Origin: a virus
Taxonomy: Duplodnaviria; Caudoviricetes
Reading direction: 5' to 3' (one strand)
DNA length: 25,697 nt
Virus record (IMG/VR): IMGVR_UViG_3300014775_000091
Span: 1-25,697 of that record
Below are positions 1 to 25,126 of the stretch, one piece after another; the stretch's first letter is position 1, and every line of letters starts with the position of its first letter. A program made the position numbers and the translations under genes. The notes below the pieces were generated by a model, which was given only the letters and a program-made list of their open reading frames with translations, had not been told where the DNA came from and searched no databases.

Positions 1-132
1 GGCTCTTCCACCCTTACTTCCAGACTTAACGGATGATACTATACGTCTCCAGAGGGCTGGGTTGGCCTTCTTCGCCGAAGATTTCTTCAATATAGTTGAA
101 AAAATCTCGATGGGTACGTCCCAATTATCCAT
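1..132 (-). CDS. 5' part of a DUF5872-like basic protein (runs off the window)
   Basis: Manual translation from ATG at 130-132: MDNWDVPIEIFSTILKKSSAKKANPALWRRIVSSVKSGSKGGRA...; the 'LW.RIV..VK.GSKGG' segment recalls the DUF5872 family (usually followed by GQWSARKAQ). Start overlaps the protease stop. Confidence 0.6.
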   Translation of the reverse strand, partial: MDNWDVPIEIFSTILKKSSAKKANPALWRRIVSSVKSGSKGGRA

Positions 133-1411
133 TCTTATCCTTGTTGCCTAAGTGGGTAACAGAGGCTTCCATGTTGTGGAGAGTGTCTGAGATTTTGTTT
201 TGTACCCAGCCGGGGAGGTCTTCCTCGTCCTCAATTAACCCATAGAGTGAATCAGCGATATCACGGATTCGGTCTAACTGCGACCTAGCCATCCTACCTT
301 CTTCTTCCTTAGCCATCCATGCGGCAAATGCGTCTCTTGCTTTACGCATCTCCTCCATGTTGGGGTCACCTAAGAATTGCCCTGATTCATTAACGATTAC
401 AGGAGAGACAATGTTTCCGGGTTCACTGTATGTGACTGGAGCATACCTAGCTCTCTCTAAGTCAACTTCATCAGGAAGTCCCAAAAGAGATGTTATTGAT
501 CGGCTCTGTAGCTGCCTAGCGTTTTCATTCTCAAGGACAGCCATTTGTTTTGCTCCCAACCCCGGAACGATACTAGCTTTATCAAACCAAGCTGTAAAAA
601 TCTCTGTGAAAGTAGGAACTTCTTCTTTAGAAATAACTGTAAAGAATGAACCCGGCGTTGATGCTGGAACCACCTCAGACTTCATTAACTCAAAGTGGGC
701 ACCTTGGTTAACCCCTTTTTCACAGATTGTAACTTCAGCAAGTTCTAGCTGGTCTACCTGCATGTAAGTATTAGTGCCTTTGGTAATATTCTGAGTTTTG
801 GTTGCACTACCGGCAATAGAGTAGGAACGCATCTTGTTGTCTTTGATTTGGTCAGCGACCTTCAACCCAATTTTAGTGTCGTTGCGAAGCTCACAGATGA
901 AGAACAGAGCGTTGTCCTTTACACCACTCTTAAATATCTGTCCTGACTTGGCTATGAAGGCAGGAAGCGCATGTCCAACCTGAACATCGGAATGCATTAC
1001 CATAACATTCCTAGCTCGGAAATTATTCATGTATCGTTCAAAAGCATCGTCTAGGGCGGACATTGTGATAAGATGCCCTTCCCTGTCAACCAATTCCACC
1101 GAAGCAGGACCACCCACTACGACAGGTTCTTTGTCATCCAACTCTAATATCTTGACGACTTCAGCATATTTAGGTTCATTTGGATATGCTCTATTCAGAG
1201 TTAGGATTTCTGCTGGAGAAGCTAATCCAGCCTTGAATACTCGTTCATATTCTTTTAAGGCATCCCCAATATCACTAAGGGCAACTTTACCCCCCGTGTT
1301 CGATGTAGCTTTGTCCAGAATAATAATAGAATCTTCAGATTCTTGTAGCCATTTTTCGTATGCGGTGTTCGTTGCTGCTTCAATAACCATTAGGCTTGGT
1401 GAATCCCCCAT
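125..1411 (-). CDS. Prohead maturation protease (HK97/XkdF-like fold) with N- and C-terminal extensions
   Basis: Core GPASVELVDREGHLI...NVMVMH(S)...RSYSIAG...LAEVTICEKGVN matches herpes/HK97-type prohead protease motifs (His and Ser catalytic candidates); GGAG RBS upstream. Confidence 0.85.
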   Translation of the reverse strand: MGDSPSLMVIEAATNTAYEKWLQESEDSIIILDKATSNTGGKVALSDIGDALKEYERVFKAGLASPAEILTLNRAYPNEPKYAEVVKILELDDKEPVVVGGPASVELVDREGHLITMSALDDAFERYMNNFRARNVMVMHSDVQVGHALPAFIAKSGQIFKSGVKDNALFFICELRNDTKIGLKVADQIKDNKMRSYSIAGSATKTQNITKGTNTYMQVDQLELAEVTICEKGVNQGAHFELMKSEVVPASTPGSFFTVISKEEVPTFTEIFTAWFDKASIVPGLGAKQMAVLENENARQLQSRSITSLLGLPDEVDLERARYAPVTYSEPGNIVSPVIVNESGQFLGDPNMEEMRKARDAFAAWMAKEEEGRMARSQLDRIRDIADSLYGLIEDEEDLPGWVQNKISDTLHNMEASVTHLGNKDKNG

Positions 1412-2337
1412 ATTACTCCATATACTGTTGGAGTCTCGGTACCAGTAGCGTTTACGAAACTAATCCTCTCCCTGAAGTCAATTGGGAAGTTTGTTTCAAA
1501 GAAACCAGTGTGCGGCTCATCTGCCGTAGGAGCTTTGATGTAAATTCCTGTGGATGATGAGGCATCACAGTCAAAGGCAAGGTAAGTATTGTGACTAGTA
1601 TGCAATCTTATGCCTCTAATCACAACGGAATCTACACGCTTTTTAGAGATTGATAGGTCTGCGGTACCTTCCCAAGAGTAATCCCGCCCCAAATCACCTG
1701 CTATGTATGATGAATATGAAGAATCCGTTCTGACTTCATTATGAATTTTGTCTGCATAGAATGTTGTTGACTGTTGCGTTGGGGTCACAACCTTTACATA
1801 TGCGGTTGTACCTCTAGTAGTCTTAGGAATTACGTACTGGACTTGCAGTTGTTGAAAGGATGTGCTAAGGGTAACCGTATTACCCGTAGCCAAAGTAGTT
1901 CCGTCAGCGTCCTCTATAACAATTTGGACTGTCCCTGTCGGAGAACCTCCATCCCCTCTAACAACTGCTTGTCCAGACAACACACGTATCCCAGACGAAC
2001 CGTGCCCGATAACCTGTGTAGTGTAGAAACCTTCACCAGCAGCAGCGTTATCCGTTATGTTTTTTAACGAGTTAGAGCCGTCCGCAGCGTAGGTGGAACT
2101 CTGACTAATAGTTGAACCGGTAGCAGTAAATTCCGTTATGGTAGAGTTTTCAACTGAAGGGTTAGTAACAAGGTTAACCCCTGCTTTCCCTCGGTCTATA
2201 GTAAACAAGTCCTGAGCCGTATTAGTAGTACTTAGAGTCGTACTAAACGGATAGTACTTAGTAAACGGATGAGTTGATGTTCTGGTACTGGGGTCAATTT
2301 CCCACGATGACCAAGCATCATGCATCAAGTCTGCCAT
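1390..2337 (-). CDS. Virion protein with a CBM4/9-like carbohydrate-binding beta-sandwich
   Basis: Thr/Ser-rich beta-type sequence; NLVTNPSVE...GSNSLK...FYADKI pattern typical of CBM_4_9-like domains; AGGAG RBS; lies in the head cluster. Confidence 0.55.
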   Translation of the reverse strand: MADLMHDAWSSWEIDPSTRTSTHPFTKYYPFSTTLSTTNTAQDLFTIDRGKAGVNLVTNPSVENSTITEFTATGSTISQSSTYAADGSNSLKNITDNAAAGEGFYTTQVIGHGSSGIRVLSGQAVVRGDGGSPTGTVQIVIEDADGTTLATGNTVTLSTSFQQLQVQYVIPKTTRGTTAYVKVVTPTQQSTTFYADKIHNEVRTDSSYSSYIAGDLGRDYSWEGTADLSISKKRVDSVVIRGIRLHTSHNTYLAFDCDASSSTGIYIKAPTADEPHTGFFETNFPIDFRERISFVNATGTETPTVYGVIWGIHQA

Positions 2338-2350
2338 ATGTTATTATCTC

Positions 2351-2611
2351 CTATCGGTTATAAAACCAACTAATCAATCCCGTAATCCCGCCCAATACTA
2401 CTATTGTATGCAGTAGAAGTACTCCTACCGCTACCATACTAGTCTTCGCCCCGTAAACTCGGTTACGCCATTCTTTTATGTCTGTAAGTTCAGTATCTAA
2501 TCTATTTAAAGTTTGAGTCAATGTTTTATTTAGTTCTGATTGGCTTTCAATATAACGGTCTAGGCGTTCAGCATACACCGCTAATTTCAAGTCCACTGAC
2601 TCGTCGGCCAC
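2351..2611 (-). CDS. Small membrane protein (coiled coil plus C-terminal TM; holin/XhlA-like)
   Basis: N-terminal heptad-like region followed by hydrophobic MVAVGVLLLHTIVVLGGITGLISWF. Confidence 0.5.
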   Translation of the reverse strand: MADESVDLKLAVYAERLDRYIESQSELNKTLTQTLNRLDTELTDIKEWRNRVYGAKTSMVAVGVLLLHTIVVLGGITGLISWFYNR

Positions 2612-2970
2612 TATCGACCGTAGACCATAATCCGAACACTTACATTACTCAGGTCTTCTGTGTCTGCTACCTCAATAGTTGAAGATAGGTCTGTTGTTGT
2701 ATTGCTAGCATCACCATTGTAGACTTTTATTTTCGAGTTAGCGTAGTCGTACAGAGCAAAGTATGCATAGTCAGTCCCTGAAGTATCTTCAACGTTGCCA
2801 ATTGCAACGAATTCGATTTTATCAAGTCCTAGGTCGCTGGCTGCGAGAGACTCACCCCCAGTAGGATAAGAACTGTCGAATGTAACTTCAACTATTCTAT
2901 ATTGGAGATCGCCGGGAACACCCTTTGGAAACTCTGCACCGCTAGAAGAAGTGCTAATAGAAAGAGCCAT
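2611..2970 (-). CDS. Putative capsid decoration/cement protein
   Basis: 119 aa directly after the MCP; VTFDSSYPTGGESL motif seen in small post-MCP structural proteins; GGAGG RBS. Confidence 0.55.
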   Translation of the reverse strand: MALSISTSSSGAEFPKGVPGDLQYRIVEVTFDSSYPTGGESLAASDLGLDKIEFVAIGNVEDTSGTDYAYFALYDYANSKIKVYNGDASNTTTDLSSTIEVADTEDLSNVSVRIMVYGR

Positions 2971-2995
2971 TTATTTTTCCTCCATGGATACGTGT

Positions 2996-3023: not shown

Positions 3024-3038
3024 AAAAGAAAGCTTTGA

Positions 3039-4391
3039 TTACGTGTTAAGGTCAACAATCTTGGCCTGAACATCGAAACGGTGTGCCCTAAGTTCAGCCA
3101 TCGTGTAAAGCAAACCACGAACTACGAGCGATGAAGCTGCAAAGTAGTCACGGTTCTCGATGTACTGAGTAGGTTGAGCAACCGCTACCTCAAGGTAGTC
3201 AGTGTCCAGAACGTAGACGTTAGAACCAAGCTCACCATCTGCGTCACTGTAAGACTTAGTAGTGTCTGCATCTGGAAGAATTGGGATACCCATGTAAGTA
3301 GACAGAACCAGACCAGTTCGAGTTCCGGGGAATGTCTTCTCCGAACCGATACCAACCTGATACTCTTCCTGACCGAGGTATCGCTGCTGAGAGTTGAGCA
3401 ATCGCTCAAGTTTGAAGTACTGGTCATGTCCCATGAGGATGAGCTTTGGCTCACCACCATTGGTGCGAATCTTCTCAATAGCTGTGTCCAGCATGTTGAG
3501 CGAGAGGTCTCGACCCGTACCAGAGTTGCCCTGTACCGAAGCAGCAGTCTTCCACTGGTTAGAAGAAGTTCGGCTTTCGGTAAGAGTAGATTCAATACCG
3601 TATACGTTTGCACGAGTGTCGGTCGTTGAGCTACCTACGTTTGTACCGTGAACGGTAACAATGTCGTCGATAGAGGTAAGACCAGCACGAGTGTGGACGT
3701 AGATAAGGTCACCGTCAGCTGGGTCGTTAGTGAAGTTAATGGTCAACACGTTACCGGAAATAGCGGTAATTTCAACACCGGTAGCATCTTCGTGTGTACC
3801 AGCGTTGTCAAGTGCGAACTTGTCACCAACTCGGAATCGGGAACCGTCGTCAACTGTTACAGTTGTACCGTTACCAGCAGTAGCAACAGCGGCTGAAGGA
3901 GCGGTCAACTCAAGGTTCATTTCCTTGATGTGGTCCAACTGAGCGTTCTCGTTTTCGAGGGCAAGAACATCACCAACACCACCTTCAAGCTGCGACGTAA
4001 ACATCGCCTTGACTGAGGCTGCGAATGTCGTACCAACGATACGAGGCAGCGACGAAACGGTCTGAATGTCCGAAACGTCGATTGTTGGCAACGAACCAGT
4101 TTCACTGATAGGCTGTGAACGGTTTGCGCCACGGTCGGCACGAACACGCCAACCAGCAGTGTTACCCCACACATTACGTGGGAGTGCGTTGAAGAAGCGG
4201 GTCTGGTTGTTCAGTGCTTGCCATACCTTGCGACCGAAAGTAGCCGTGAAGATATCACCTGAAACCGAGCCACCGCCATCTACACCGAGGGCAGTTCCGG
4301 AGAACGCCTTTGACAGGTACTCAGAACCGAGAAGACTCTGGGTCATTCCTCGGTTAGCCTGAGCTAGATATTCTGAAAGCGAAGTAGCCAT
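3039..4391 (-). CDS. Major capsid protein (HK97 fold)
   Basis: 450 aa after the scaffold; FGRKVWQALN...GWRV, P/A-domain-like C-terminus (LDTAIEKIRTNGG, YMGIPILPD, YVLDTDYL); AGGAGG RBS; followed by a hairpin. Confidence 0.9.
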   Translation of the reverse strand: MATSLSEYLAQANRGMTQSLLGSEYLSKAFSGTALGVDGGGSVSGDIFTATFGRKVWQALNNQTRFFNALPRNVWGNTAGWRVRADRGANRSQPISETGSLPTIDVSDIQTVSSLPRIVGTTFAASVKAMFTSQLEGGVGDVLALENENAQLDHIKEMNLELTAPSAAVATAGNGTTVTVDDGSRFRVGDKFALDNAGTHEDATGVEITAISGNVLTINFTNDPADGDLIYVHTRAGLTSIDDIVTVHGTNVGSSTTDTRANVYGIESTLTESRTSSNQWKTAASVQGNSGTGRDLSLNMLDTAIEKIRTNGGEPKLILMGHDQYFKLERLLNSQQRYLGQEEYQVGIGSEKTFPGTRTGLVLSTYMGIPILPDADTTKSYSDADGELGSNVYVLDTDYLEVAVAQPTQYIENRDYFAASSLVVRGLLYTMAELRAHRFDVQAKIVDLNT

Positions 4392-4413: not shown

Positions 4414-5172
4414 TTAAAGTGTGACCTCACCGTTCTGTACTGCGAACTGCAATTTGCGAAGTTCACCGTAAGAAAGGTTAGCAAGGTCATTAACGTCTAC
4501 GGATTCAGTAGCCTTAACAATGTCTACTTCATCCTTACCAAAGGTAGCCTTAGGAGCGACCAATCGGGTCTCTTCCTTAAAGCCCATTTTTCGTAGTCGA
4601 GCTTCGGACTCTTCCTGAACAGCCTTAGCAATATTAGCCTTAGAGTCAGCAAGTTCTTTCTGAAGAGCATCAATCTGCTTCTTCATCTGGCTGTACATAG
4701 CCTTCTCTTCGTCCTCGTCCTCATCCTCGTCCATCTCAGCCTTTTCCTCATCCTCGGCCTCGTCGTCCTCTTCAGCCTTCATAGGGTAAGACTTCTCTTC
4801 GTCTTCCTCTTCGTCGTCCTCAGCCTCAGCCTGAATAGTGGCTTGCTGGTCAGCAGCAGCTGTAGGAGGAGCAACAGTAGTGGAAGAGTCGTCACCACTG
4901 GCGTTTACAGGACCGCTGCTCTTAGCCTTGCGTTCCTTTTCGCCATCCAGATCATCAGTAGCTTTGAGCATACTAACAACAGCAGAAGCGACATCTTTTA
5001 CAAGAGCGTTTCGCTCATCAGCTTCAGCTTTGGCGAGTTCAGCCTCTGCATCCACTTCTTCGGCTTTAGTGAGCCGAGCGTCCATCTTTTGAAGTACTTC
5101 TGCCAAAGCAGCTAGACCCAGTGAAGTGCCTTCCATGTACTTCTCAAGACGACCATTGAATTCGTCACTCAT
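4414..5172 (-). CDS. Capsid scaffolding protein (start revised to MSDEF at 5172)
   Basis: Acidic, coiled-coil, Asp/Glu runs, immediately upstream of the MCP; GGAGG RBS at 5179-5183 precedes ATG 5170-5172. Confidence 0.8.
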   Translation of the reverse strand: MSDEFNGRLEKYMEGTSLGLAALAEVLQKMDARLTKAEEVDAEAELAKAEADERNALVKDVASAVVSMLKATDDLDGEKERKAKSSGPVNASGDDSSTTVAPPTAAADQQATIQAEAEDDEEEDEEKSYPMKAEEDDEAEDEEKAEMDEDEDEDEEKAMYSQMKKQIDALQKELADSKANIAKAVQEESEARLRKMGFKEETRLVAPKATFGKDEVDIVKATESVDVNDLANLSYGELRKLQFAVQNGEVTL

Positions 5173-5281
5173 TGAGAACCTCCAATATGATTCCATTCCA
5201 TTCCAATCCAAGTAAAGGTTGGTCTTAGCCACCGCCGACCTTTATATAAAAATAGAACAAATATTCTAAAATGTTCTAGTT

Positions 5282-5290
5282 TATTATACT
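5282..5290 (-). promoter_or_regulatory. Candidate late promoter AGTATAATA upstream of scaffold/MCP
   Basis: Exact copy of the recurrent 9-mer containing TATAAT, in an intergenic gap. Confidence 0.7.
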
Positions 5291-5546: not shown

Positions 5547-5957
5547 TTAATCAACCATAAACCCCAGTGAAGTGCCACCTTTGTTCATCATACTCTGAAT
5601 ATAATCAGGCAAATTATCCCCTACAACCCTATTCAAGGCATCTTCCAAATACGGCTGTCCTTTTCTCATATGTCCTTCTACCAAGGAACTTCTACCATTT
5701 TTAAGTCTTCTTCTAGTTGTGGGAATATACCCCCCATCATGAACAAGAACGGCATAAGGTGCTCGGTACGAAATGAATGACTCTCTTGGACTAATACTAG
5801 AAACCATAGAACGTTGAAGTTCTCCCGATTCATATGGAAGAGGCCCCTCAGGTTTAGGAATCTGAGATTCATCTTTAACCTGACGGGCTAACTCCTGCTG
5901 CAATAATTCAACAGCGGACATAAATATGTATCGTATACGGGTATTTCTATCAGTCAT
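5547..5957 (-). CDS. HK97 gp10-like / minor capsid-type neck or tail-completion protein
   Basis: PYESGELQRS...YAVLVHDG...GQPYLEDAL pattern (P..SG.L..S, YA..V..G, QPYL). Confidence 0.65.
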   Translation of the reverse strand: MTDRNTRIRYIFMSAVELLQQELARQVKDESQIPKPEGPLPYESGELQRSMVSSISPRESFISYRAPYAVLVHDGGYIPTTRRRLKNGRSSLVEGHMRKGQPYLEDALNRVVGDNLPDYIQSMMNKGGTSLGFMVD

Positions 5958-5961: not shown

Positions 5962-5970
5962 TATTATACT
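5962..5970 (-). promoter_or_regulatory. Candidate late promoter giving a leaderless transcript
   Basis: AGTATAAT-AGGGT-ATG: TATAAT ends 5 nt before the start codon. Confidence 0.6.
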
Positions 5971-7321
5971 AACTAACCCAAACTTCTGGAAGGTCTAATT
6001 CAAACTCCGAAGGCTGAGTATCGAACCTATCGAGGTAAACAACTTCTTTACCTACCTGTCCATACTCTGGGTGATAGTAAAGTACTAGGTGTTTTGGTTT
6101 AGTAATCACATGCAGCCTACTAAAAACAAATTCATCTCCACCTTTAGTGGTGCCGCAGATATGCAAACTACCTGTACCTATATCTATTTCATCTATTCTG
6201 TGGAAATGCCCTAACAAAACATCATCAAACGACTCAGGTACTTCATACGCTGCGTCCGAGATCAATTGAGTTTTGTATTGCAGAACAGCCCTCAGAGAAG
6301 TTATTGCTCGTTGAATGCTGGCTGTTGCTCCGCCCCCCGCAATAGAATCACCATGCATTATCAACACATTACGATTTGCTACTGAGAATACATGGGCAAA
6401 ACTCTTAGGAATTTCAAACTTAATGTTTTTCTGATCTTTACAGAATGTAGCAATCCACTGATACATCATGTAATCCCAATCCATGAATCTATCTTTAGAT
6501 GGGATTTTACGAGTCATGCGACCGTGGTTACCCACAACACATGGAACTCTAATCTCATCAAAGTGAGGAGCAAGGAACATCAAAGCTTGACTAATAACCT
6601 TGGCTCCATACATCATCTGCATCATGCAGTTGTCTACGTTAGTACGAGCAAGTTCTTCATGAATGTCTCCTGAAATCATGTCTCCTAGCATAGGAACAAC
6701 TAGTTCTTTAATGTCGCAGATATTGCGGCGATACTCAGCTAGGTTTAGAACTTGATTACTCCAACCCCAAATTCGTCGGCTAAACAACTCAATGTCATAT
6801 TCATTAAGTCCAACCATTTGTTCTGGAGATACTAAATCTCCAACGTGAGTGTCTGTAAGTGGAGCAACCATACTTTGAGCCGACTTACCTCTAGGTCCTT
6901 CGGAGGGTTTCCGAATAGGGAAAGGCTTTGTAGGCTTCATAGGAGTTACATATTTTTGTAAAGTGTCGATAAGCAGATCGTTTTTAGTTCTGTTCTTTAT
7001 GACCTGCTCATAAAGCTTTTTGTAATATCTAGATTCAGCTTTATACGTTTCGAGTCTTTTATCTAACCGAATGCGGTCTCCTAGAAAGTCAGCCTCGGAT
7101 TCAATAGGTTCGGGAGCTATGCCATCAGCCATACGCGCAGCAGCCTCATCCAAAACCTCAGAGTAATCATAAACCTCTCGGTCATACCATCTTTGGATAG
7201 TAGACCTGTGTACCGAAACCCCGTATTCTTCTTCTAGAAAATCGGCAAGACTAGTCCATGTTTGTCCGGCTTTCCTCCTCCGAATCAGTTCTGGCTTCGC
7301 TATTTCTGGAATCACGGTCAT
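5969..7321 (-). CDS. Calcineurin-like metallophosphoesterase with N-terminal HTH and coiled coil
   Basis: All five MPP motifs: DTHVGD, GDMISG, GNHGR, HGD, GHFH; N-terminal WTSLADFLEEEYGVSVHRSTIQRWY HTH; GGAGG RBS. Confidence 0.85.
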   Translation of the reverse strand: MTVIPEIAKPELIRRRKAGQTWTSLADFLEEEYGVSVHRSTIQRWYDREVYDYSEVLDEAAARMADGIAPEPIESEADFLGDRIRLDKRLETYKAESRYYKKLYEQVIKNRTKNDLLIDTLQKYVTPMKPTKPFPIRKPSEGPRGKSAQSMVAPLTDTHVGDLVSPEQMVGLNEYDIELFSRRIWGWSNQVLNLAEYRRNICDIKELVVPMLGDMISGDIHEELARTNVDNCMMQMMYGAKVISQALMFLAPHFDEIRVPCVVGNHGRMTRKIPSKDRFMDWDYMMYQWIATFCKDQKNIKFEIPKSFAHVFSVANRNVLIMHGDSIAGGGATASIQRAITSLRAVLQYKTQLISDAAYEVPESFDDVLLGHFHRIDEIDIGTGSLHICGTTKGGDEFVFSRLHVITKPKHLVLYYHPEYGQVGKEVVYLDRFDTQPSEFELDLPEVWVS

Positions 7322-8402
7322 CAGCGTCCTCCGCTTTGCTTGTTTCTAAAACTTCAAAATACTCTTTAAACATGTTATAAAAGGCATCAAACTCTTCGTC
7401 AGTACTTTTATAGGTTGTTTCCTCTGGAACCTTTTCTTCTGTTTCGGTCTTAGCTGGTTTAGATGGTTCTTGTATAACAGCCTGTCTAGGTAGATCAGAA
7501 CCAGCTTTTTCAACATCTTCGTTTTCAAGAACTGCGTCCTTAAGTTTAGACCCTGCTACAGCGGCTCCCATTCTAGCAAGTACTGCTAATTTTTCAAGCT
7601 CGTCGTCTTCTTTACGAAGATCAGAGGCAGCCGAGTTGACTATATCAGCTGCCCACTTTTCTACCTTTTTAGAGTCTCTCAGAAACCTATCTAGTTTGTC
7701 AACCCCGCTTCTCTTTTGTTTATTCTTTTTTGACGAATTCCCTCCATAGGTTGGAGTAAATACGCCGGGGTCTGAGGAGACAGCTACCGTACCAACACCT
7801 GCTACCGCTCCTCCACCACCATCCTCTTTCAGGAAAGAGACGAATTGGTCTAAAGTAGTTGATTTAGACATAGCTATCTCTTTACCACTCTTTACATCAT
7901 CAAGAAGTCTAGCCCTAGACTTCTCTCTAGCAGCTTGGGTCTTGTAATCATCGTCCCTTTTTCCTTGAGAGAGCACAGATTGTTTCGCTTTGATTGCTTC
8001 ACCGTGCCCCATTGCTGCGTTTAGATGAGCTTGTGCCGCTTCCGGAGATATTGTTCGGAGTCTGTTTGATTCCGCTAGGTGTCCTTGAGCAGCTTCATCA
8101 TGGTAGTTAACAGGACTTCTTTCAATCTTTGGGTGATGGATTGCTTTTACACCATTGCCGTAGTAATAAACTACCGTACCGTCCGGACGTTCTTCTTTTG
8201 TCAGGTACGAATGATTTTTAGCTTGCTCCGGCTGCGACAAATATTTACCTGCTTCGGAGTCTGGGTCAATGTCCTTTTGTTCAGGAACGGAACCTACATG
8301 TCTGGTACCTGACTCTGGGTGATTGGAAGAATCATAATATAATTCTTTGCTCCAATCCCGCTTTTCCTCCTGTGGAGCTTTATCATCTTTCTGCTCAGGC
8401 AT
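7251..8402 (-). CDS. Hypothetical modular protein, probable internal head protein
   Basis: Follows the portal; charged and low-complexity, with a His-rich helical segment, a Gly-rich segment and many hydrophobic-x-K sites; GAGGAGG upstream. Confidence 0.55.
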   Translation of the reverse strand: MPEQKDDKAPQEEKRDWSKELYYDSSNHPESGTRHVGSVPEQKDIDPDSEAGKYLSQPEQAKNHSYLTKEERPDGTVVYYYGNGVKAIHHPKIERSPVNYHDEAAQGHLAESNRLRTISPEAAQAHLNAAMGHGEAIKAKQSVLSQGKRDDDYKTQAAREKSRARLLDDVKSGKEIAMSKSTTLDQFVSFLKEDGGGGAVAGVGTVAVSSDPGVFTPTYGGNSSKKNKQKRSGVDKLDRFLRDSKKVEKWAADIVNSAASDLRKEDDELEKLAVLARMGAAVAGSKLKDAVLENEDVEKAGSDLPRQAVIQEPSKPAKTETEEKVPEETTYKSTDEEFDAFYNMFKEYFEVLETSKAEDADDRDSRNSEARTDSEEESRTNMD

Positions 8403-16040: not shown

Positions 16041-16542
16041 AAATAGACTCCTCATATGATTTGGTTCTAAGAGCGACCACTCTCGAAACAGTTGCGTAGG
16101 CAGACGTATACAATCGAAGTTCCCCAAGAGTCTTCTGATAAACAGTTTTCATGTTTATGCACTCTCTTAGCAAATCCATCAACGCTGGATTAGTCATCAA
16201 CACTTCACCCCTCAAGTTTTCTTTACTAGGTTTTCGTTGATTTTCGATTCTGTACTTATCAGCCACTTTAAACATAGCTATATTATAGGCTTCTTCAAAC
16301 TGAGCTTCCATAGCCCCTTTACGAGCCTCTAAATCAGCTACATGTTGTTCTAGCAATCCTTTCAAGCCCCCGTAAACAACTAGATAATCAGACAACTCTT
16401 TCGCTGAGGCTGTCATTACCTTAGAAAAGTCTAATTCCGTTTCCGGTCGGTTAGTATCTAAAACAATTTTAGGGATACTAAGGTTAGCGACATAATCATT
16501 CGCTTGTTGTATAGCATCTCCATAAGACCATCTTTTTCTCAT
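16024..16542 (-). CDS. Coiled-coil protein, possibly a UvsY-like recombination mediator
   Basis: Long helical hairpin with a basic mid-loop, among RecA/Cas4/RuvC genes; no diagnostic motif. Confidence 0.4.
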   Translation of the reverse strand: MRKRWSYGDAIQQANDYVANLSIPKIVLDTNRPETELDFSKVMTASAKELSDYLVVYGGLKGLLEQHVADLEARKGAMEAQFEEAYNIAMFKVADKYRIENQRKPSKENLRGEVLMTNPALMDLLRECINMKTVYQKTLGELRLYTSAYATVSRVVALRTKSYEESIYGRDA

Positions 16543-17222
16543 AAGTCAAATTTCCCCTGCGGTGTAACTTTTTTACAGTCACAATACCATTCCCCAGTAC
16601 ACTTTTCCGGTATAGCTTTCATGTTCATTATCCGGTGGCATCTATCAACTATATCTGACCACATCTTATCATCCGGAATAATCTTAAAGCATTTCCACTC
16701 TTGATTATCTTTGTTTTCATACAAAACATAACCAATTTCATACTCAGTCGTATGCAAATACAACTGAATCTGTACCATATGTTCCGGTTTAGGTGCGGAT
16801 AGTTTTGAGAATAGACTACTCTTAATAGTTTTCAATTCTAGAATAGCAGTACGATTCGTCTGAGATGTGATAAGGAAATCCATACGTCCAGAAATAGGAG
16901 GGTCTTGATACTTTGCGGGTACTTCCCGATCTTTGAAAAGATCAGCTTTCACTAAATACTTTTCCATCCGATCTTCAAAAGTATTTCCGTGATCGAAAAT
17001 TCTCTGTAGCTTAGGATTAACATCTAGTGCGGGCAACATACCATTGTAAGCATAGTATAGATACCTATCACAAGGGTTACCTAAGGAAGATGGGTAAAAC
17101 ACTCCTTGCGACGGAGCACGACCGGGGTCTACGATAGTTGCTTCTATCTCAAGCGGTAGCCAATTATCCTTAGTAGATGTTTTAGTTACGTTTCCGGGTC
17201 GAATCTGTCTAATTCCTGCCAC
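16539..17222 (-). CDS. Cas4-like PD-(D/E)xK exonuclease
   Basis: PSSLGNPC, GRMDF...ELKT, QIQLY, C-terminal CTGEWYCDC (1+3 Cys Fe-S staple). Confidence 0.85.
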   Translation of the reverse strand: MAGIRQIRPGNVTKTSTKDNWLPLEIEATIVDPGRAPSQGVFYPSSLGNPCDRYLYYAYNGMLPALDVNPKLQRIFDHGNTFEDRMEKYLVKADLFKDREVPAKYQDPPISGRMDFLITSQTNRTAILELKTIKSSLFSKLSAPKPEHMVQIQLYLHTTEYEIGYVLYENKDNQEWKCFKIIPDDKMWSDIVDRCHRIMNMKAIPEKCTGEWYCDCKKVTPQGKFDL

Positions 17223-17488
17223 AGTCTAGTCCTTATCGTTTCTAACGTGTTTTCTTTAAAGTGCATTATATCACAAATGCCTTGTTGTTTCAAAGCAGCA
17301 TCTCGTTTTTGGTCTCTCTTTTGTAAGTGTCCAAAAACACCATCAGCTTCAATAACAGCTTCTAACTCAGGTAAGTAGAAGTCTACTGTGTATGGAGGGA
17401 ACTCTGCTTGATACACATACCGAAGCCCCGTTTCCTCCAAACACCTTTGTATTAGTTTTTCTTGGTCAGTCCAATATCTGAACGGCAT
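17186..17488 (-). CDS. DUF559/Vsr-like endonuclease
   Basis: YTVDFYL...VIEADG..GH..RDQKRD motif. Confidence 0.8.
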   Translation of the reverse strand: MPFRYWTDQEKLIQRCLEETGLRYVYQAEFPPYTVDFYLPELEAVIEADGVFGHLQKRDQKRDAALKQQGICDIMHFKENTLETIRTRLWQELDRFDPET

Positions 17489-18425
17489 CTACAATCTTCT
17501 TCATCTCTTCAGGGAATTGGTCAGCAAATGCTCTAAGGTTGTCGAAACCCTGTATTCTCTGATCTGGAAACTTGTCGCAGTAGTACCATGCTCCACGTTT
17601 GGTGATAATGCCTTTCTCCAAAGCCTCTCTCAGGTAGGTTTCATTTGTATCAATACCACCTTCAATGCGGAATGGAACCTCAACTTGTTCCCACCGTTCT
17701 CCACCAAACTTATCCTTTAGAAGACCAGCCTTTATCATAAACCCGACACGCTCGTCCTTCTCTTTGATATAAGAGCCTCTACGAGTCTCCATGACAGCAT
17801 GAGCAAAGAATTGTTGTCCTTTACCGCCCGGCATAGTCTCTATGGCTGATACAGGTCCCATAGACCCCCGTACTTGGTTTATAACAACTAAGGCAGAACC
17901 ATGACTAAGAAGCGGTAGCAACCTAATCAAAGCTTGGTTCCAAGACCTAGCTTGCCATGCAATCGGGCTATAACCAAAAGAATCTTTGTTCTCAGTAATG
18001 TCTTCTGGAATTAGTCCTGCTACTGAATCTAGAATAACGAGATCAACACCATTCTTTAGACCCGCCTCCATCGCCCGATACGCATCTTCTGCGTTAGAAG
18101 CTTGCTTTACAAGAATACTCTCTGTGTCTAAGCCACACTTCTCCATCCAAACCGAATCCCAAGACATCTCGGTATCAACCCAAAGAGCAACACCATCTTG
18201 ACTTTGAACTGTTTTGCATAATTGACTAGCTAGATAAGACTTACCTGAAGACCACCCACCAAAGAATAATGAGAACTTCTTCTTGGGAATCCCCCCATTC
18301 GTAATCCGATCAAGAGCCGGGATGTTAAAAGGAATCTTCTCGTATAGGAATTCTTCTGAATTACCTACTACAAAACCAAGATTCTTATCCTCTAATAATG
18401 TATTAAACAAATCATTCGCTGGCAT
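17466..18425 (-). CDS. recA: RecA-family recombinase
   Basis: ALDRITNGGIP, Walker A GGWSSGKS, VDTE, ILDSVA, INQVR, PGG, GAWY. Confidence 0.92.
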   Translation of the reverse strand: MPANDLFNTLLEDKNLGFVVGNSEEFLYEKIPFNIPALDRITNGGIPKKKFSLFFGGWSSGKSYLASQLCKTVQSQDGVALWVDTEMSWDSVWMEKCGLDTESILVKQASNAEDAYRAMEAGLKNGVDLVILDSVAGLIPEDITENKDSFGYSPIAWQARSWNQALIRLLPLLSHGSALVVINQVRGSMGPVSAIETMPGGKGQQFFAHAVMETRRGSYIKEKDERVGFMIKAGLLKDKFGGERWEQVEVPFRIEGGIDTNETYLREALEKGIITKRGAWYYCDKFPDQRIQGFDNLRAFADQFPEEMKKIVDAVQILD

Positions 18426-18905: not shown

Positions 18906-20915
18906 TTAATCCCAATCTAACAAGTCTACAGTAGTTAGTTCCGGTTCTACTGCTGGTATTTCAAACTTGCCTCGAACTGGGATTCCTTCGATTAAATCTA
19001 TATCTTCCTTAGTTGCCCACGAAGGGTCACATACTTCCATGTCTACCTGTAACGGGAGATTCAAAGTGTTCTCCAGTAGCAAACGACGAACGTTAGGAAT
19101 AACATCCATAGCTTCATCATCATGGACTTCGCAGATAATTTCATCGTGCACCTGTAATAAAATGGTACTCTGTTTATCAGCTAAGTATTTGTCAACCTCA
19201 ATCATTCGTTCGGTCAACAAATCCGCACTAGTCCCCTGAATCAAATAGTTAACCGCCTTGTAGCCTTTATCGTGGGGGACTTTGTAGATACGTCCATACT
19301 TATTACGTACCCATCCACGACGCTCTATCATTCGTACCACTGTATCGAAAAACGTTTTCGACCCTGCTATGTTCTCGAAATATTCTTTCTTATACCTAGC
19401 TGCCTCATCGGGAGTGGTATTTAGTTGTTGCGCTAGTTTCTGCTTACCGATTCCGTAAATAACCCCAAACGTAATAGTTTTAGCAAGCTGGCGGTAGAAC
19501 TTATACTCAGGGTGGTCCTTGTCTACCTTGAATGCTATCTTAGCCGCTTCGCCGTGGAAGTCTACATCCCCCTGTTTCATCAACTCTAACATCTGTGGGT
19601 TGTCTATGTAGTACATAAACATACGGACTTCCATCTGAGAATAATCATAGGAGACTAAAGAGTAGTTTTTTCGAGGTACAAACAAACGGCGTACCGCTAT
19701 CTGCCCCTCGTCTTCTTCACTGTAGGATTCATCACCGACAAATCCCCACGCTTCAAGTACCTCATTGCTAAGTTTCTCACTATCCGCAGATGACCCACCC
19801 TTAGAAGCAATAGTGGCTCCCACTCTATCCCGTACTTCTGAATAACCAGCCTCATCTAATTCCACATCATATAATTTAAAATGGTTACGGGGAATATTTT
19901 GCAGGTTTGGACCACGAGAAGAAAGTCTGCCTGTAACAGTTCCCCAATTTGCAAAGGTTGTATGCATCACAGGCGTTTCAAGATAAGGGTCAACGTATGT
20001 AGACCTCAGCTTCAGCAACGTTCTGTACTGCCGAATCAGCCCTGCTACGGGATGGTTTATTTGAACAAGAGCGCCTTCATTCCAAGCATCTTGACCCTTA
20101 TCGGTCTTCATGGGTGATCGAACCCCAACAGAATTAAAGTAGTTTCCTACCTGTTGAGTACTAGCAATGTTGAATACGCTCCCAGCTACACCATGAATCC
20201 GCTTTTCGATCTCCGAAAGCCGGTTTGTAAGCTTTTTCGTAGTAGATTCAGCATATTTTTGATCAATAGCTATGCCTCTACGCTCCATATTGAGTAAAAC
20301 CTTCGTTAGTTCAATCTGAGTGCGAAAAACATTCTCTTGTTCACTGTTTTTGATCTTTTCTAGCGAGTCTTCGTACACCTTAAGTGTCCAATAAGCATCT
20401 TTAATACAATATGGACCTAAAATCTCCGGAGGACACAAAGAAAAGTCTTTATTCCACCGGTTTTTGACTAAAACTTGCTTAGTTTCCTTATCGTAAGCTG
20501 CTTCTGACGCTCCAAAGCGGCGTGTTATGGTCTCTGTAAGAGATAAGGAATCCACAATGCTTGATTCAGTAAGCCTAACCATAACTAGAACATCTATCAG
20601 GTCTTTATCATCTACCTTGAGGCCGTCTTTCTCCAAAAAAGGGACATCAAACTTCAAGTTGTACGCAACAATCCGTTTTATCTTATTCATTTCATCCATA
20701 AGTATGGGAAGAAAAGCTGAATCTAGATTACCCCCAAGGGTTTGGTGTCTGAACGGAAAGTAAAAAGCGTTATCTGGAACTGCAATACCTATACCACAAA
20801 GCTGATTATAGGAGTATGGGTCTAGTCCATTAGTCTCACAGTCAATTACCCATTGGTCATGCTTTGAAAGCGTCTCAATAGCTGAATTAAATTGTGATTC
20901 TGATAGAACTAACAC
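18906..20915 (-). CDS. polA: Family A DNA polymerase with 3'-5' exonuclease (no 5'-3' nuclease)
   Basis: ExoI DCET, ExoII YNLKFD, ExoIII YCIKD; TGRLSS, NLQNIP, motif A DYSQME, motif B RQLAKTITFGVIYG, motif C QVHDE. Confidence 0.95.
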   Translation of the reverse strand: MLVLSESQFNSAIETLSKHDQWVIDCETNGLDPYSYNQLCGIGIAVPDNAFYFPFRHQTLGGNLDSAFLPILMDEMNKIKRIVAYNLKFDVPFLEKDGLKVDDKDLIDVLVMVRLTESSIVDSLSLTETITRRFGASEAAYDKETKQVLVKNRWNKDFSLCPPEILGPYCIKDAYWTLKVYEDSLEKIKNSEQENVFRTQIELTKVLLNMERRGIAIDQKYAESTTKKLTNRLSEIEKRIHGVAGSVFNIASTQQVGNYFNSVGVRSPMKTDKGQDAWNEGALVQINHPVAGLIRQYRTLLKLRSTYVDPYLETPVMHTTFANWGTVTGRLSSRGPNLQNIPRNHFKLYDVELDEAGYSEVRDRVGATIASKGGSSADSEKLSNEVLEAWGFVGDESYSEEDEGQIAVRRLFVPRKNYSLVSYDYSQMEVRMFMYYIDNPQMLELMKQGDVDFHGEAAKIAFKVDKDHPEYKFYRQLAKTITFGVIYGIGKQKLAQQLNTTPDEAARYKKEYFENIAGSKTFFDTVVRMIERRGWVRNKYGRIYKVPHDKGYKAVNYLIQGTSADLLTERMIEVDKYLADKQSTILLQVHDEIICEVHDDEAMDVIPNVRRLLLENTLNLPLQVDMEVCDPSWATKEDIDLIEGIPVRGKFEIPAVEPELTTVDLLDWD

Positions 20916-20936
20916 CCATATCTCCTGTAATAGTAA

Positions 20937-21656
20937 TTAAAAGGGTAGCTTTTCAGTTTCCCAGCCGTCCTCATCATCATCGAGAGAAACGCTAGATGTC
21001 GGGACTGTTTCCTGATTAGGCTCGGAAGGTGTGTCGGAGTAGACATCCAACATGTAATCCTTGATACTAGGGAGGTCATTAACCTCTGAGTACTTACTTT
21101 CGGAAATTTCATCTTCCTTAGGAGTAGCAGTTATCGTGTAGGTTGTGTCCAACCCTGCTCCTTGCCGTCTAATACGGACGACACCCTTGTTCAAAGTACC
21201 CCAATCGTTATAAACATCTACCAACTGGTTCCACAAAGCGTTACTGCGACCCATAGACAGAGCGATAACTCGGAAATCATTAATTTCTTCCTTATACACT
21301 GTCTTTCCTGAAGGACCAGTAACTGCTTCCCAACGATCATTGTTGTTTGGGTTAGAACCGTGGAATACCTCGATTACATACGCCCAAAAAGCAAATCGGT
21401 GTGAAGCCCGTGTTCCCTCAGGGATTTTTCCCATCGGACCATTAGGTCCTTCCAAAACACTCCTAAAAGAGCCACCGTCTTGAAAAGTATACATCCAGAA
21501 TTCATCTAGATATGGGTCGTTGTCTTCTCCAGTTGCTACTGGAATTAGAAACGCCTGATCACCATCTCGGAAATACAACTCCCTACGATTGGAAGATGTT
21601 CCCCGTTCTGAAGATGTACGGGTGCTACGTTCATTAATTGCACGAATACCGGGCAT
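20937..21656 (-). CDS. Single-stranded DNA-binding protein (gp32-like)
   Basis: Aromatic-rich OB-like core, RRQGAGLDTTY motif, acidic tail ending DDDEDGWETEKLPF; between primase and polymerase. Confidence 0.75.
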   Translation of the reverse strand: MPGIRAINERSTRTSSERGTSSNRRELYFRDGDQAFLIPVATGEDNDPYLDEFWMYTFQDGGSFRSVLEGPNGPMGKIPEGTRASHRFAFWAYVIEVFHGSNPNNNDRWEAVTGPSGKTVYKEEINDFRVIALSMGRSNALWNQLVDVYNDWGTLNKGVVRIRRQGAGLDTTYTITATPKEDEISESKYSEVNDLPSIKDYMLDVYSDTPSEPNQETVPTSSVSLDDDEDGWETEKLPF

Positions 21657-21665
21657 AATAATCTC

Positions 21666-22526
21666 CTACCAAAAACTTCTATCTTCTACTATCTGGGTTA
21701 CGACATCCTTTTGACGAACCTCTTGAATATCTTTATACCCAGATGGTAATTCAATATGTGATACTTTAATGTATTGTCCGAGTGATGTCAAGGCTCTTTC
21801 CATACCAATTTGTCCAGCTTCATCAGAATCTAGACAAAGTGCTATCTCACCTACAGGTAACTCCTGTAAAAGTTCTACCTGTTTTTTAGAGATAGACATT
21901 CCTAGGATGGACACCGCAGGATAACCCAATTGTGTAAACCACATAGCATCCAACGGACCTTCTACAACACACAATAGTGGGCAATCCTTTATGAGGTGCC
22001 CACCAAACAATACCCTAGATTTTTTAAACTCGTTCGGGTACAGATACTTCGGAAACCCCTGCTCCCTACGAACTGCCCAGCCTACCATACGTTGCTGTAA
22101 GTCATAGATTGGTAGAGCCAATCCGTTCTCAGCAGTTATACCGGCATTCCAATGCTTTAGTGTACGTTTTGTGAAGCCTCTATCGAAAATCCACGACGGT
22201 ACGTAACTTTGGTTGTAAGGAAATTCAACTTCCGGGAGTGTGTCAGAAACGGGTACAAAGTCATCAAACAAGTTAATGTTTACTGTTACTTCGTTATCCC
22301 CTATAAGTTTAGCTAGTTCTTTCTCAGATATATCTAAATACCTAAGTAAGAATCCTTTTAAACTCCCCTGACCACACCCCCGAAAGCAAATCCACACACC
22401 TTTACGAGTGTTAATCGAGCATGAGTTATGACTGTCAGCATGAAAAGGACACAATAAAGTGAACTGTTCTTCACCTAGAGGAACAGAGACACCAGATGCC
22501 TCTAATACTGCTGACCAATCAATCAC
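21666..22526 (-). CDS. dnaG: DnaG-type DNA primase
   Basis: CHC2 Zn finger CPFH...CFRGC; Toprim VEGPLD and DSDEAG. Confidence 0.9.
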   Translation of the reverse strand: MIDWSAVLEASGVSVPLGEEQFTLLCPFHADSHNSCSINTRKGVWICFRGCGQGSLKGFLLRYLDISEKELAKLIGDNEVTVNINLFDDFVPVSDTLPEVEFPYNQSYVPSWIFDRGFTKRTLKHWNAGITAENGLALPIYDLQQRMVGWAVRREQGFPKYLYPNEFKKSRVLFGGHLIKDCPLLCVVEGPLDAMWFTQLGYPAVSILGMSISKKQVELLQELPVGEIALCLDSDEAGQIGMERALTSLGQYIKVSHIELPSGYKDIQEVRQKDVVTQIVEDRSFW

Positions 22527-22726: not shown

Positions 22727-22735
22727 TCTAATCTC

Positions 22736-23980
22736 CTATAATCCTATGTCGAACTCTTCAATTTGACCAGAGTCAACTTTCCACGTAAAGGTGCAGTTAT
22801 CGACCGAGAGGTCACCATCACGATACTTCTGGAATTGCACTTCTCGCTGATCGTCGAAATCTTCGACCATACACATTGAGAGTGCTACATCCGAAGCTCG
22901 TATTAGAGCGTCCCCAAATGCGACCTGATCTGACCGGGGAGGAGAGAACATATTTGCCCCTGCATCCCTAGTAGCTTGTGTTGATACCATAATGGAAGTA
23001 TTTTGAGCCAGAGCGTAATTCTTTAGACCGTAGAACAAGCTGTGGCTTTGTTCCCACGCAGCCTTCCTAGAATCCGAAGTGGATATCAAATATACTCCAT
23101 CTATCACCGTAATGTCGGGAGAGTATTTACGGATTAGGCTAGCAATACTGCCTAATGAAATGCTGTCCTCTCCATTAATGTGATCGCATATCAGAAGTCG
23201 TTTGGTATTAGACTTCTGCAAAAAATCTTTATACTGCGCCTCGTCGATAGGTTGACCTGTACGCAAGGCTCTATGAGAAAGTTTGTACCCCATCATCTGA
23301 GCAAGAACTACATCTAAACGCATTTCAATAGATCGTTTAGACATCTCAGTAGACACTAATAGCGTTCTATGTCCTTCCAAGATCGCTGTAGCCGCTGTCT
23401 TAATGCATAGCCATGTCTTTCCTACCGTAGGTCTAGCAAAAGCAGAGATAAGGTCTCCGGGTTGCCAACCCATGCCTGTAGAATTAATCGCTTTGAACGG
23501 AGTCTTTATACCGATTAGTCCGTCACCCATCTGTCTTTTCTTACTGCGTTCCTGCCACTCATCGAATCGAGTCATGTCCCCGGAATCGTAATGGAAAACA
23601 TCCTCATCATACACCACTTCAATATCTTGAAGCTGGTTAGTGATGTTAGCAAGAGCCGCTTTAGGGTTATCGGAAAGCGTAGTTTTATTCTGGCTAAAAG
23701 TGTTTACTATCTCACGGAATAGAATTTGTTTACGAAATTCATCTTGAGCGTAATCAAAGCTTACGGTAACCGCATCCTTACGAAGTTTAGGGTACTTCTC
23801 TATAAGTACACTAGTCTCAGGAAATTCTTGGTATTGGTCATGGTATTCGTTTATGAATTTTACTGCGTCCCCATGTACCGCAAAATTCCTAAGGGGATAC
23901 CTAAATCGCTTGTAGTTCTTACTGTCAGTTAGACCTAAAACTAATGCGGATTCAATAAAGTTAAAGTTGGTGCTATCCAT
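22736..23980 (-). CDS. dnaB: DnaB-like SF4 replicative helicase (start revised to MDSTN)
   Basis: ARPTVGKT, STEM, IDGVY, TQ, KYRDG; AGGAG RBS before ATG 23978-23980. Confidence 0.92.
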   Translation of the reverse strand: MDSTNFNFIESALVLGLTDSKNYKRFRYPLRNFAVHGDAVKFINEYHDQYQEFPETSVLIEKYPKLRKDAVTVSFDYAQDEFRKQILFREIVNTFSQNKTTLSDNPKAALANITNQLQDIEVVYDEDVFHYDSGDMTRFDEWQERSKKRQMGDGLIGIKTPFKAINSTGMGWQPGDLISAFARPTVGKTWLCIKTAATAILEGHRTLLVSTEMSKRSIEMRLDVVLAQMMGYKLSHRALRTGQPIDEAQYKDFLQKSNTKRLLICDHINGEDSISLGSIASLIRKYSPDITVIDGVYLISTSDSRKAAWEQSHSLFYGLKNYALAQNTSIMVSTQATRDAGANMFSPPRSDQVAFGDALIRASDVALSMCMVEDFDDQREVQFQKYRDGDLSVDNCTFTWKVDSGQIEEFDIGL

Positions 23981-23987
23981 AGAACTC

Positions 23988-24215
23988 CTACTTTGCTGAC
24001 GGATAAAGAACACGACCTACATCGTTACATACGTATAAGCGTACCAAGTCCGAAGTATGGTCGTCAACTAATGCTTTAGCATCTTTGTACGAAGCGTAAT
24101 CCCCATAATCCCAAAGTTTACGCATTTCAAAACCCAATACTTTGAATTTGCCCTCAGGTGCTCGCCTTAAAGACAAATTAGAATAGCTTATCTGTTTTGG
24201 CTTTTGATTTTCCAT
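23988..24215 (-). CDS. Hypothetical protein (75 aa)
   Basis: GAGGGG upstream; fits the operon. Confidence 0.55.
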   Translation of the reverse strand: MENQKPKQISYSNLSLRRAPEGKFKVLGFEMRKLWDYGDYASYKDAKALVDDHTSDLVRLYVCNDVGRVLYPSAK

Positions 24216-24630
24216 CTTTATTCCCCTCTAACAACATAACCAGTTCTTTGTATCGGGCTTTGTCCGATGCTTTAGGGAACCATTTGGTTTCTATTCGGAC
24301 TAATTCCCGCCAAAGTACTTTATCAGAGGGCTTTGTGGATGTCAATACCTTCCAGTATAAATCTGGACGTTTACAATCAGGTAGATAGTAGGACAAAGCT
24401 GATAACGTAAACATTACCCTAGCTTTTTCTCCGTTTTGTTTCAGGGAGTCATACAGCGCAGCTAACACATTGAAGTACCCATGCGTATCAATTGCTTTTT
24501 TCAAAGCACTGATTTCTCGCCCTATGAAGGTCTGAACTTCATATTCTTTGCCTGTTTCTTTTGCGTATAAAAGAGCAAATGCAGAAAAGGCAGTATTAGC
24601 ATTTAAGTTAGAAGGAGATTTTCTCGCCAT
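24178..24630 (-). CDS. Hypothetical protein upstream of the helicase
   Basis: 150-aa helical ORF overlapping both neighbours; function not recognised. Confidence 0.6.
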   Translation of the reverse strand: MARKSPSNLNANTAFSAFALLYAKETGKEYEVQTFIGREISALKKAIDTHGYFNVLAALYDSLKQNGEKARVMFTLSALSYYLPDCKRPDLYWKVLTSTKPSDKVLWRELVRIETKWFPKASDKARYKELVMLLEGNKDGKSKAKTDKLF

Positions 24631-25126
24631 AGTAGGTATTAATCTTTTCTTTTACCTTTGCCGCTATTTTATGCGGCATAGATAACTGTAATTTTTTACT
24701 TATTTCAGTATTAGTATACCCCATTAAACGTAAATTAATAAAAGCTAACTCAGTTCTAGTGAAATCTATAGATTCTAGGTTGTGTATTGTAATAAAGTCT
24801 TCTAATAGAGAAATCTTTTCTTCGATACGGTCTTTGAGATCAAACCCGTTTTGGTTTTCACTCTCTAAAGGAACTACATAAAAGTTACGCTTACTTTTCT
24901 GGGTAGCTTTAAAAAGTAAGGTGCGGATTGTATTAACCATACTAGTATGTAGATATGTATGGAATTTTACCTGCCGTGTGTCATCATACTTTGCCGCTGC
25001 TTTACATATAGCCAAACGCAGCTCCTGAGCCAAATCGTCTCTGTCTAAACCATTTATAATGACCGACGAAGCCATTTTTTGGACTTTTGGCTCCCACTGT
25101 ACAATCAGTTCATTGTTTATTTGCAC
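24608..25126 (-). CDS. Phage sigma-70-family RNA polymerase sigma factor
   Basis: Region 2 pattern DRDDLAQELRLAICKAAAKYD...KFHTY...N; region 4-like LMGYTNTEISKKL; AGGAG RBS and GTG start. Confidence 0.8.
   Translation of the reverse strand: MQINNELIVQWEPKVQKMASSVIINGLDRDDLAQELRLAICKAAAKYDDTRQVKFHTYLHTSMVNTIRTLLFKATQKSKRNFYVVPLESENQNGFDLKDRIEEKISLLEDFITIHNLESIDFTRTELAFINLRLMGYTNTEISKKLQLSMPHKIAAKVKEKINTYYGEKISF

Follow-up and report, generated by a model that had tools for sequence, protein, structure and literature searches.

Head and replication genes of the window

The viral DNA analysed here (the window) comprises positions 1 to 25,697 of the IMG/VR virus record IMGVR_UViG_3300014775_000091, and within its 25.7 kb we found 32 genes, all on the minus strand, as are all other features described below. 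Pfam and PHROG scans of the translations revealed the major capsid protein (MCP), portal, and protease of a tailed-virus head together with a bacterial-type set of replication and transcription genes, and it is this combination, its likely host, and its origin that concern us. The MCP (3039..4391) was assigned by homology, profile, and structure model to an HK97-type-fold family of Druskaviridae and magroviruses, the portal (8402..10366) carries a cysteine (Cys) insert and was archaeal-virus-like by homology and in trees, and the prohead (S78) protease (125..1411; PF04586, phrog_23555), which has a long C-terminal extension, lies three genes downstream of the MCP. The initial annotation had picked out sequence motifs in the MCP and protease and the Cys insert of the portal, all of which were found in the window translations, and had noted that these proteins resemble those of archaeal viruses.

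Searches with tblastn against 50,697 annotated phage records supported that resemblance, archaeal viruses accounting for every one of the 11 MCP, 10 portal, and 8 protease records matched. The matched viruses were the Druskaviridae HVTV-1/HCTV and the methanogen-linked vir519 and vir335, at 22-29% identity, and the best named matches were to Druskaviridae (HVTV-1, HCTV-1, and HCTV-5; Thumleimavirales) at 26-29% for the MCP, 26% for the portal, and 29% for the protease, which matched this family alone. The Cys insert of the window portal aligned with that of the HVTV-1 portal, and over 52-90 kb of HVTV-1 three of the 32 window proteins (MCP, portal, and protease) were matched, but not the terminase. 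Magrovirus-like loci, our inferred label for PolB-bearing environmental records that stand in for the named magroviruses, came nearer to the window in portal (28-37% identity and up to about 240 bits) and protease (31-43%) than did HVTV-1 (143 bits) or vir335 (55 bits).

A profile built from 14 PolB-, MCM-, and halovirus-type MCPs scored the window MCP at 215 bits, compared to 194 for vir519, 102 for vir335, 22.5 for the Arthrobacter phage Jasmine, 5.8 for T5, 4.0 for HK97, and no more than 22.5 for phiEco32. MCP, portal, and protease did not nest among ordinary bacterial phages, the outcome that the initial annotation had named as fatal to its idea. The AlphaFold model of the MCP (pLDDT 80.5), a protein with a β-rich insertion at about residues 165-235, best matched an uncultured-virus MCP (47%), followed by HVTV-1 (E 4e-23), its best named structural match, and then Jasmine (E 5e-21); the solved structures matched were HK97-type capsids such as those of Mic1 and SU10. 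The window Pfam scan also returned PF17236, cited for the structurally related MCPs of Jasmine, Mic1, and Kuravirus type. A Jasmine-type MCP as the closest relative was ruled out by the profile score, although it still served as a useful outgroup, and no window protein had a BLAST match to the MCP, portal, or terminase of Jasmine at E <0.05. We regard it as virtually certain that the head is shared with archaeal viruses.

The replication and transcription genes named in the initial annotation were likewise all present. A family A DNA polymerase with a 3'-5' exonuclease domain (PolA; 18906..20915; PF00476, E 2e-78), whose best listed tblastn matches were bacterial-type PolA at about 27-33% identity, is accompanied by a single-strand DNA-binding protein with an acidic tail ending in LPF (SSB; 20937..21656; phrog_1607 and sequence), a DnaG-type primase with Toprim and CHC2 zinc-finger domains (21666..22526), a DnaB-type replicative helicase (22736..24013; PF03796), and a sigma-70-family factor with region 2 (24608..25126; PF04542, E 8e-12; phrog_351). 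Recombination functions comprise a RecA/UvsX-like recombinase (17466..18425; PF00154, E 2e-32), a RuvC-like resolvase (15415..15873; PF02075), and a Cas4-like exonuclease and DUF559 nuclease (16539..17488; Pfam and PHROG scans). AGGAG ribosome-binding sites, also cited as a bacterial trait, did occur within 20 nt upstream of the first possible start of 11 of the 32 genes, but such sites are not specific to bacteria. No tRNA genes or Rfam families were found in the window.

The remaining genes of the head region are less clearly defined. Between protease and MCP lie a conserved protein, likely of the virion (1390..2337; a weak CBM_4_9 match at E 1e-3, below the cut-off, and a conserved position in relatives), a small coiled-coil protein with a C-terminal hydrophobic segment (2351..2611) that is holin-like by shape only and conserved in position, and a small protein directly after the MCP (2611..2970; weak phrog_26402, E 0.006) whose position makes it a candidate head decoration protein. 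On the other side of the MCP are a putative acidic coiled-coil scaffolding protein (4414..5172), so named from its position before the MCP, a neck/tail-completion protein (5547..5957; phrog_5, E 2e-8), and a phosphoesterase-type exonuclease inserted in the head module (5969..7321; phrog_284, E 3e-45). A nuclease in the head module has been reported for group C magroviruses as well, a PolD-exonuclease-like gene standing at a similar place there in the available portions of Philosof 2017. Among relatives, protease length ranged from about 290 to 1850 aa, suggesting variable fused domains, and three portal open frames of 1050-1767 aa (G123, G126, G137) were matched in several pieces, which suggests large insertions such as inteins. 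Single in-frame TAG codons were present in a DnaB match (G142:C1:41092-42321) and a portal match (G129:C1:72642-74081). Six RNA runs shared 0.20-0.33 of the sequence words of the 3-12 kb region of the window, which we did not take as expression.

Terminase, promoters and continuity of the locus

The terminase large subunit (TerL; 12782..14422; phrog_38), which is preceded by a helix-turn-helix small subunit (14415..14942; PF06056, phrog_2414), was not archaeal-virus-like. In the tblastn search it gave weak matches of about 24% to 9 bacterial-phage records alone and no match to the terminases of HVTV-1, vir519, or vir335, and an archaeal-like terminase was accordingly rejected. The archaeal-like set of the initial annotation, whose proposed phylogenies had grouped TerL with the head proteins, thus stood for the MCP, portal, and protease and failed for the terminase, and since TerL is not archaeal-like the seam has TerL/NrdJ on one side and the portal on the other instead of falling at 14.9-16 kb, where it had been placed.

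We fetched 79 loci around TerL, and all 19 that extended at least 7 kb upstream and at least 4 kb downstream carried both PolA and portal; PolA was present in 32/32 loci with 7 kb upstream, and the order PolA-TerL-portal was kept among loci down to 53% TerL identity. Single contigs of flat depth from three runs in three studies bridged the junction (8-24, 8-22.7, and 8-17.7 kb), answering the call of the initial annotation for a read-coverage check. The unusual gene mix and a drifting GC content, about 0.50 at the MCP and 0.38 near 16 kb, might have pointed to an archaeal virus and a bacterial phage having been assembled into one chimera, but with both modules in 19 of 19 long relatives and with the bridging contigs this explanation was ruled out, and the probability that we leave to it is negligible.

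An 87-kb relative and four more near-complete genomes shared a core block of DnaB, DnaG, PolA, RecA, and DUF559, and TerL and portal came after the replication block in three of the four distant near-complete genomes. Because gene order is conserved across such distant members, the joining of the modules points to one old event. Relatives, about 80 to 170 kb in length, added tail tube and fibre genes, which together with the HK97-fold MCP, portal, terminase, and maturation protease of the window complete the hallmarks of Caudoviricetes. The clade is large, with 497 IMG/VR stretches encoding a close MCP relative; in the clustered proteins, 1107 passed among 7999 scored. Two relatives carried unusual accessory genes. 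The distant member G134 (L522-L526), a provirus by IMG/VR class, had 25 tRNA genes in one cluster, a tubulin/FtsZ-family gene, NusG, sugar-modifying enzymes, and a phiEco32-like COOH-NH2 ligase, and G130 (L517-L521) had a tRNA with a stop-codon anticodon, RtcB, an RNA ligase, a pyruvate phosphate dikinase-like gene, and GroES.

The head genes themselves carry bacterial-type promoter elements. The sequence AGTATAATA, identified by motif enrichment, contains a sigma-70-type -10 box and lies ahead of the scaffold-MCP operon (5282..5290), with further copies at 5962, 10821, 10831, 12907, and 15709, for a total of 6 in the window against 0.27 expected, all on the coding strand. A generic promoter scan of the window found no excess (28 versus 29.5 in shuffles), and enrichment was confined to this specific motif. 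In relatives, GTATAAT stood ahead of the scaffold-MCP operon in all 45 distinct sequences and ahead of the gene preceding the portal in 27 of 52, and upstream of five control genes it was found in 0-1 of 22-52.

The leader of the scaffold-MCP operon contains a nearly invariant hairpin (5214..5243), placed after the TATAAT box and before the start of the scaffold gene; 44 distinct copies of it were present in the fetched loci. Compensatory changes occurred in 4 of its 9 predicted pairs among 17 sequences, in the outer stem, and no Rfam family matched it; we consider it a candidate translational operator of the scaffold-capsid operon. The longest open reading frame (ORF) of the scaffold would start at GTG 5232, inside the hairpin, and homologues start at an ATG equivalent to 5172, behind a GGAGG site, so ATG 5172 is probably the true start.

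Host affinities

The best clue to the host came from a gene absent from the initial annotation, a class II (B12-type) ribonucleotide reductase, NrdJ (10844..12772; Pfam, homology, and trees), which is shorter than the cellular forms. It was 65% identical to the chromosomal NrdJ of 3 of 121 genomes of the class Dehalococcoidia, and 60-65% identical to that of 21 of 61 genomes of one order of the class, with the cellular gene in an ftsZ-nrdR-nrdJ operon in all three loci annotated. Phage NrdJs, the distant G136 included, formed a 99-supported clade with 13 cellular NrdJs of this order. Elsewhere identities were lower, with near-full-length matches of at most 53% in the rest of the class, at most 49% over the full length in genomes of the class Nitrososphaeria (the genomes searched did not include Poseidoniales), at most 48% in plasmids, and at most 39% in annotated phages; viral contigs searched with the cellular NrdJ gave distant matches only. 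The gene was conserved throughout the marine clade.

A second gene pointed the same way. The relative G139 encodes a quinolinate synthase, NadA (L513:1182-2393), a Chloroflexota-type auxiliary gene of NAD synthesis, and the 6 organism-named matches among the top 120 listed were all Chloroflexota/Dehalococcoidia. Two clade contigs were also binned in a Dehalococcoidia metagenome-assembled genome (MAG). The NrdJ trees, the NadA of a relative, and the TATAAT boxes strongly indicate a bacterial host, as the initial annotation had proposed from the replication genes, and on this point we have very high confidence; that the host is one of the Dehalococcoidia we consider probable. The candidate host order appears to be SAR202-like.

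Genomes of the candidate order lacked penicillin-binding proteins (PBP; 0/5) and MurB (0/5), and 10/10 bacterial controls were positive; these two markers were used because the Mur-ligase family was uninformative, giving one weak match in each of 4 genomes, presumably FolC. Archaellins were found in 3 of 5 genomes of the order, a set partly different from that scored for PBP and MurB. For SAR202, Lim et al. 2023 (PMC10444878) report both traits, the lack of peptidoglycan synthesis and the archaella. Among five near-complete phage genomes, a scan of 55 ORFs from the 87-kb contig and of 225 out of 256 ORFs (110-1500 aa) listed for the other four recognised no endolysin family, the ORFs dropped being mostly overlapping opposite-strand frames and the scan missing short ORFs and ORFs across cut points. 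The result is suggestive only, and fits a host without a wall.

Relation to archaeal viruses and direction of the proposed exchange

Across 1.84 billion representatives, phmmer found 284 relatives of the MCP, and in a 154-row tree the 20 MCPs linked to PolA were monophyletic with support of 98. Searches of whole records in the window's branch found PolA in 19/24 and DnaB in 17/20, with PolB in 0/14 and MCM in 0/20; four of the five records without PolA were fragments of 23-37 kb, and the fifth has DnaB. The other branch, sampled through one short shared motif as three divergent MCP alignments gave no search pattern, was the reverse, its 23 long records yielding PolB in 7, MCM in 2, and neither PolA nor DnaB in any. 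From these replisomes we infer that the PolB records are magrovirus-like and the MCM-only records Nitrososphaeria-virus-like. The P0324 branch gave no host clue, cluster look-ups returned two organism labels for 30 proteins, and the ESM Atlas returned viral clusters only.

Magroviruses (Aoguangviridae, Magrovirales; described in the available text of Philosof 2017, PMC5434244), compared through their stand-in records, have an HK97-fold MCP, a Cys-insert portal, and an S78 protease of the families seen in the window, and are also marine and of similar genome size. They differ in having PolB, MCM, AEP, and PCNA, whereas the window clade has PolA, DnaB, DnaG, SSB, RecA, and sigma; general Pfam scans of relatives turned up neither AEP nor PCNA, for which no separate search was made. 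The clade is further set apart from magroviruses by the lack of any terminase match found, by TATAAT promoters and a probable bacterial host, by replication and head genes on one strand, and by a protease downstream of the MCP. Druskaviridae infect haloarchaea and differ from the window in gene order, and vir519, vir335, and the MCM-only viruses (apparently infecting Nitrososphaeria) have archaeal hosts and belong to these MCP and portal families at a greater distance, the MCM-only records lacking PolA and DnaB. Jasmine, Mic1, and the Kuraviruses SU10 and phiEco32 are bacterial phages with structurally related MCPs that, for the Jasmine/phiEco32 type, fell far below the window in the profile, a scoring that did not extend to Mic1. 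The ICTV profile defines magroviruses by their replisome (PMC10768690), and PolB, which membership of Magrovirales/Aoguangviridae calls for, was absent from all 14 clade records; with a head of magrovirus/Druskaviridae type but without the defining replisome, the window virus is not a member.

Liu et al. 2021 (PMC8651126) regard the large marine MCP clade as one of archaea, mentioning only a handful of sequences from bacteria, and the portions consulted of Xu 2023 (PMC10160649) and of PMC11706807 list PolB groups alone. The clade is not described in the available sections of PMC5628999, PMC5474096, PMC4889955, PMC10848233, 10.64898/2026.09.15.751708, or 10.1101/2022.09.19.508504, and we found no description in the literature searched, which excluded most subscription papers, figures, and supplements; clade members may already stand in published trees, unlabelled or labelled archaeal. 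A 2025 preprint (10.1101/2025.08.23.671958) presents the converse, archaeal-linked families that nest within bacterial viruses, so cross-domain switching is not new as an idea. The window represents a real lineage of family or order rank within a known virus class, one that is apparently undescribed.

Several observations weigh against a Dehalococcoidia host and have to be set beside those given above. The links to the host are gene affinities, promoters, and co-binning, with no CRISPR, tRNA, or provirus link obtained; the three genomes with the closest NrdJ, together with G001, all small, had no archaellin (0/4); the NrdJ of G134 fell outside the Dehalococcoidia-order group, and other hosts are therefore possible in the wider clade; and two sequences were binned in MAGs of other organisms, the 87-kb clade contig (G002:C55, L168-L172) with Nitrosopelagicus and one MCP fragment with Sphaerochaetaceae. 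An archaeal host, from Poseidoniales or Nitrososphaeria, whose virus had exchanged an archaeal replisome for a bacterial-type one would agree with the first of these bins, with the archaeal-virus-like head genes, and with the lack of a recognised endolysin, but sigma-70-family genes and conserved TATAAT boxes require bacterial RNA polymerase, and both NrdJ and NadA derive from Chloroflexota, the NrdJs of Nitrososphaeria being well below those of Dehalococcoidia where genomes were searched; we consider such a host very improbable. The 87-kb contig makes up about a tenth of the Nitrosopelagicus MAG, is likely mis-binned, and could seed false archaeal host predictions. A different bacterium that harbours a phage with NrdJ and NadA acquired from co-occurring Chloroflexota is unlikely, though less remote, since the origin of a gene is indirect evidence of host, the genome-by-genome search for cellular NrdJ took in only a minority of the other phyla, and the Sphaerochaetaceae label exists; two independent genes nevertheless agree, NrdJ has been kept throughout the marine clade, and the absence of a recognised endolysin suits a wall-less host. 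On balance, the window is a genuine fragment from a large tailed-phage lineage in which a replisome, sigma factor, and TATAAT promoters of bacterial type are combined with a head trio of the magrovirus/Druskaviridae family, and we think it likely that the marine members of the clade infect wall-less Dehalococcoidia.

With the bacterial host retained, the direction of the exchange is far less settled. In the portal tree (LG+G4, 24 of 31 rows) the PolA clade grouped with magrovirus-like viruses, HVTV-1, and the MCM-only viruses, with vir335 and vir519 outside (support 93), and a tree of concatenated head genes gave the same grouping, again excluding vir335/vir519 (support 88); under a mixture model the portal grouping of the PolA clade was without resolution. 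The archaeal hosts of the family are diverse and one bacterial branch alone was found, and a passage from archaea to bacteria is the history that we prefer, at about even odds. Against it, approximately unbiased (AU) tests did not reject archaeal monophyly (p 0.21 for the portal, p 0.43 for the concatenated head genes), and an MCP tree of 28 rows with Jasmine and phiEco32 as outgroups placed the PolA clade as sister to all archaeal MCPs (support 88). The structural score of the Jasmine MCP nearly equalled that of HVTV-1 and the MCP family profile picked up cyanophage Mic1 (E 3e-10), so that the wider MCP superfamily takes in bacterial phages, Jasmine, Mic1, and SU10 among them. The AU tests, the rooted MCP tree, and these bacterial MCPs favour a history in which the PolA clade, with the same bacterial host, is sister to the archaeal viruses, either because the head family predates the split or because the archaeal viruses arose from a bacterial phage, and no jump from archaea to bacteria is needed. 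Hosts are not known for most of the 284 representatives of the family, and the PolB records called magrovirus-like yielded no MCM. Long branches affect all of the portal, concatenated, and MCP trees, however, and long-branch outgroups can attract the long PolA stem, and the larger MCP tree of 154 rows, its root left open, placed the clade among other branches with weak support; sisterhood or the reverse direction seems to us a serious possibility that falls somewhat short of even.

If the archaea-to-bacteria history is correct, an archaeal-virus head block and a bacterial-phage terminase and replisome would have been joined once, long ago, in a wall-less Chloroflexota host, an event that we would neither bet on nor against, and the peptidoglycan-free, partly archaellated surface of that host may have lowered the barrier between the domains. 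The lineage would then have diversified with its gene order intact. The present-day virus, to judge from its gene content, would be a lytic tailed phage that copies its DNA with its own PolA, DnaB, DnaG, and SSB, recombines it with RecA, the Cas4-like nuclease, and RuvC, and makes deoxynucleotides with the host-derived B12-type NrdJ. Its head genes would be transcribed from the TATAAT promoters by bacterial RNA polymerase with a host or phage sigma factor, and its own terminase would package DNA through a portal and into a capsid that are both of archaeal-virus type, the capsid being matured by the S78 protease. In its fullest form, which we advance only tentatively, this account has an archaeal virus of the magrovirus/Druskaviridae family crossing into Bacteria via peptidoglycan-free, archaellum-bearing Dehalococcoidia, gaining a bacterial terminase, replisome, and sigma factor, and founding an undescribed order-level lineage that includes abundant SAR202 phages able to lyse their hosts with no endolysin.

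The virus is widespread in the sea and would, if the host is as we propose, form a rare link between viruses of two domains of life. A large bacterial branch of this head family provides a concrete case for cross-domain host switching in Caudoviricetes, whichever its direction, and capsid or portal markers alone can mislabel such phages as archaeal. These viruses also supply candidate phages of the SAR202-like lineage, which is ubiquitous in the ocean and now cultured (PMC10444878), and through them it becomes possible to test the link to the host, the nature of the receptor (S-layer or archaellum), and the means of lysis without peptidoglycan.

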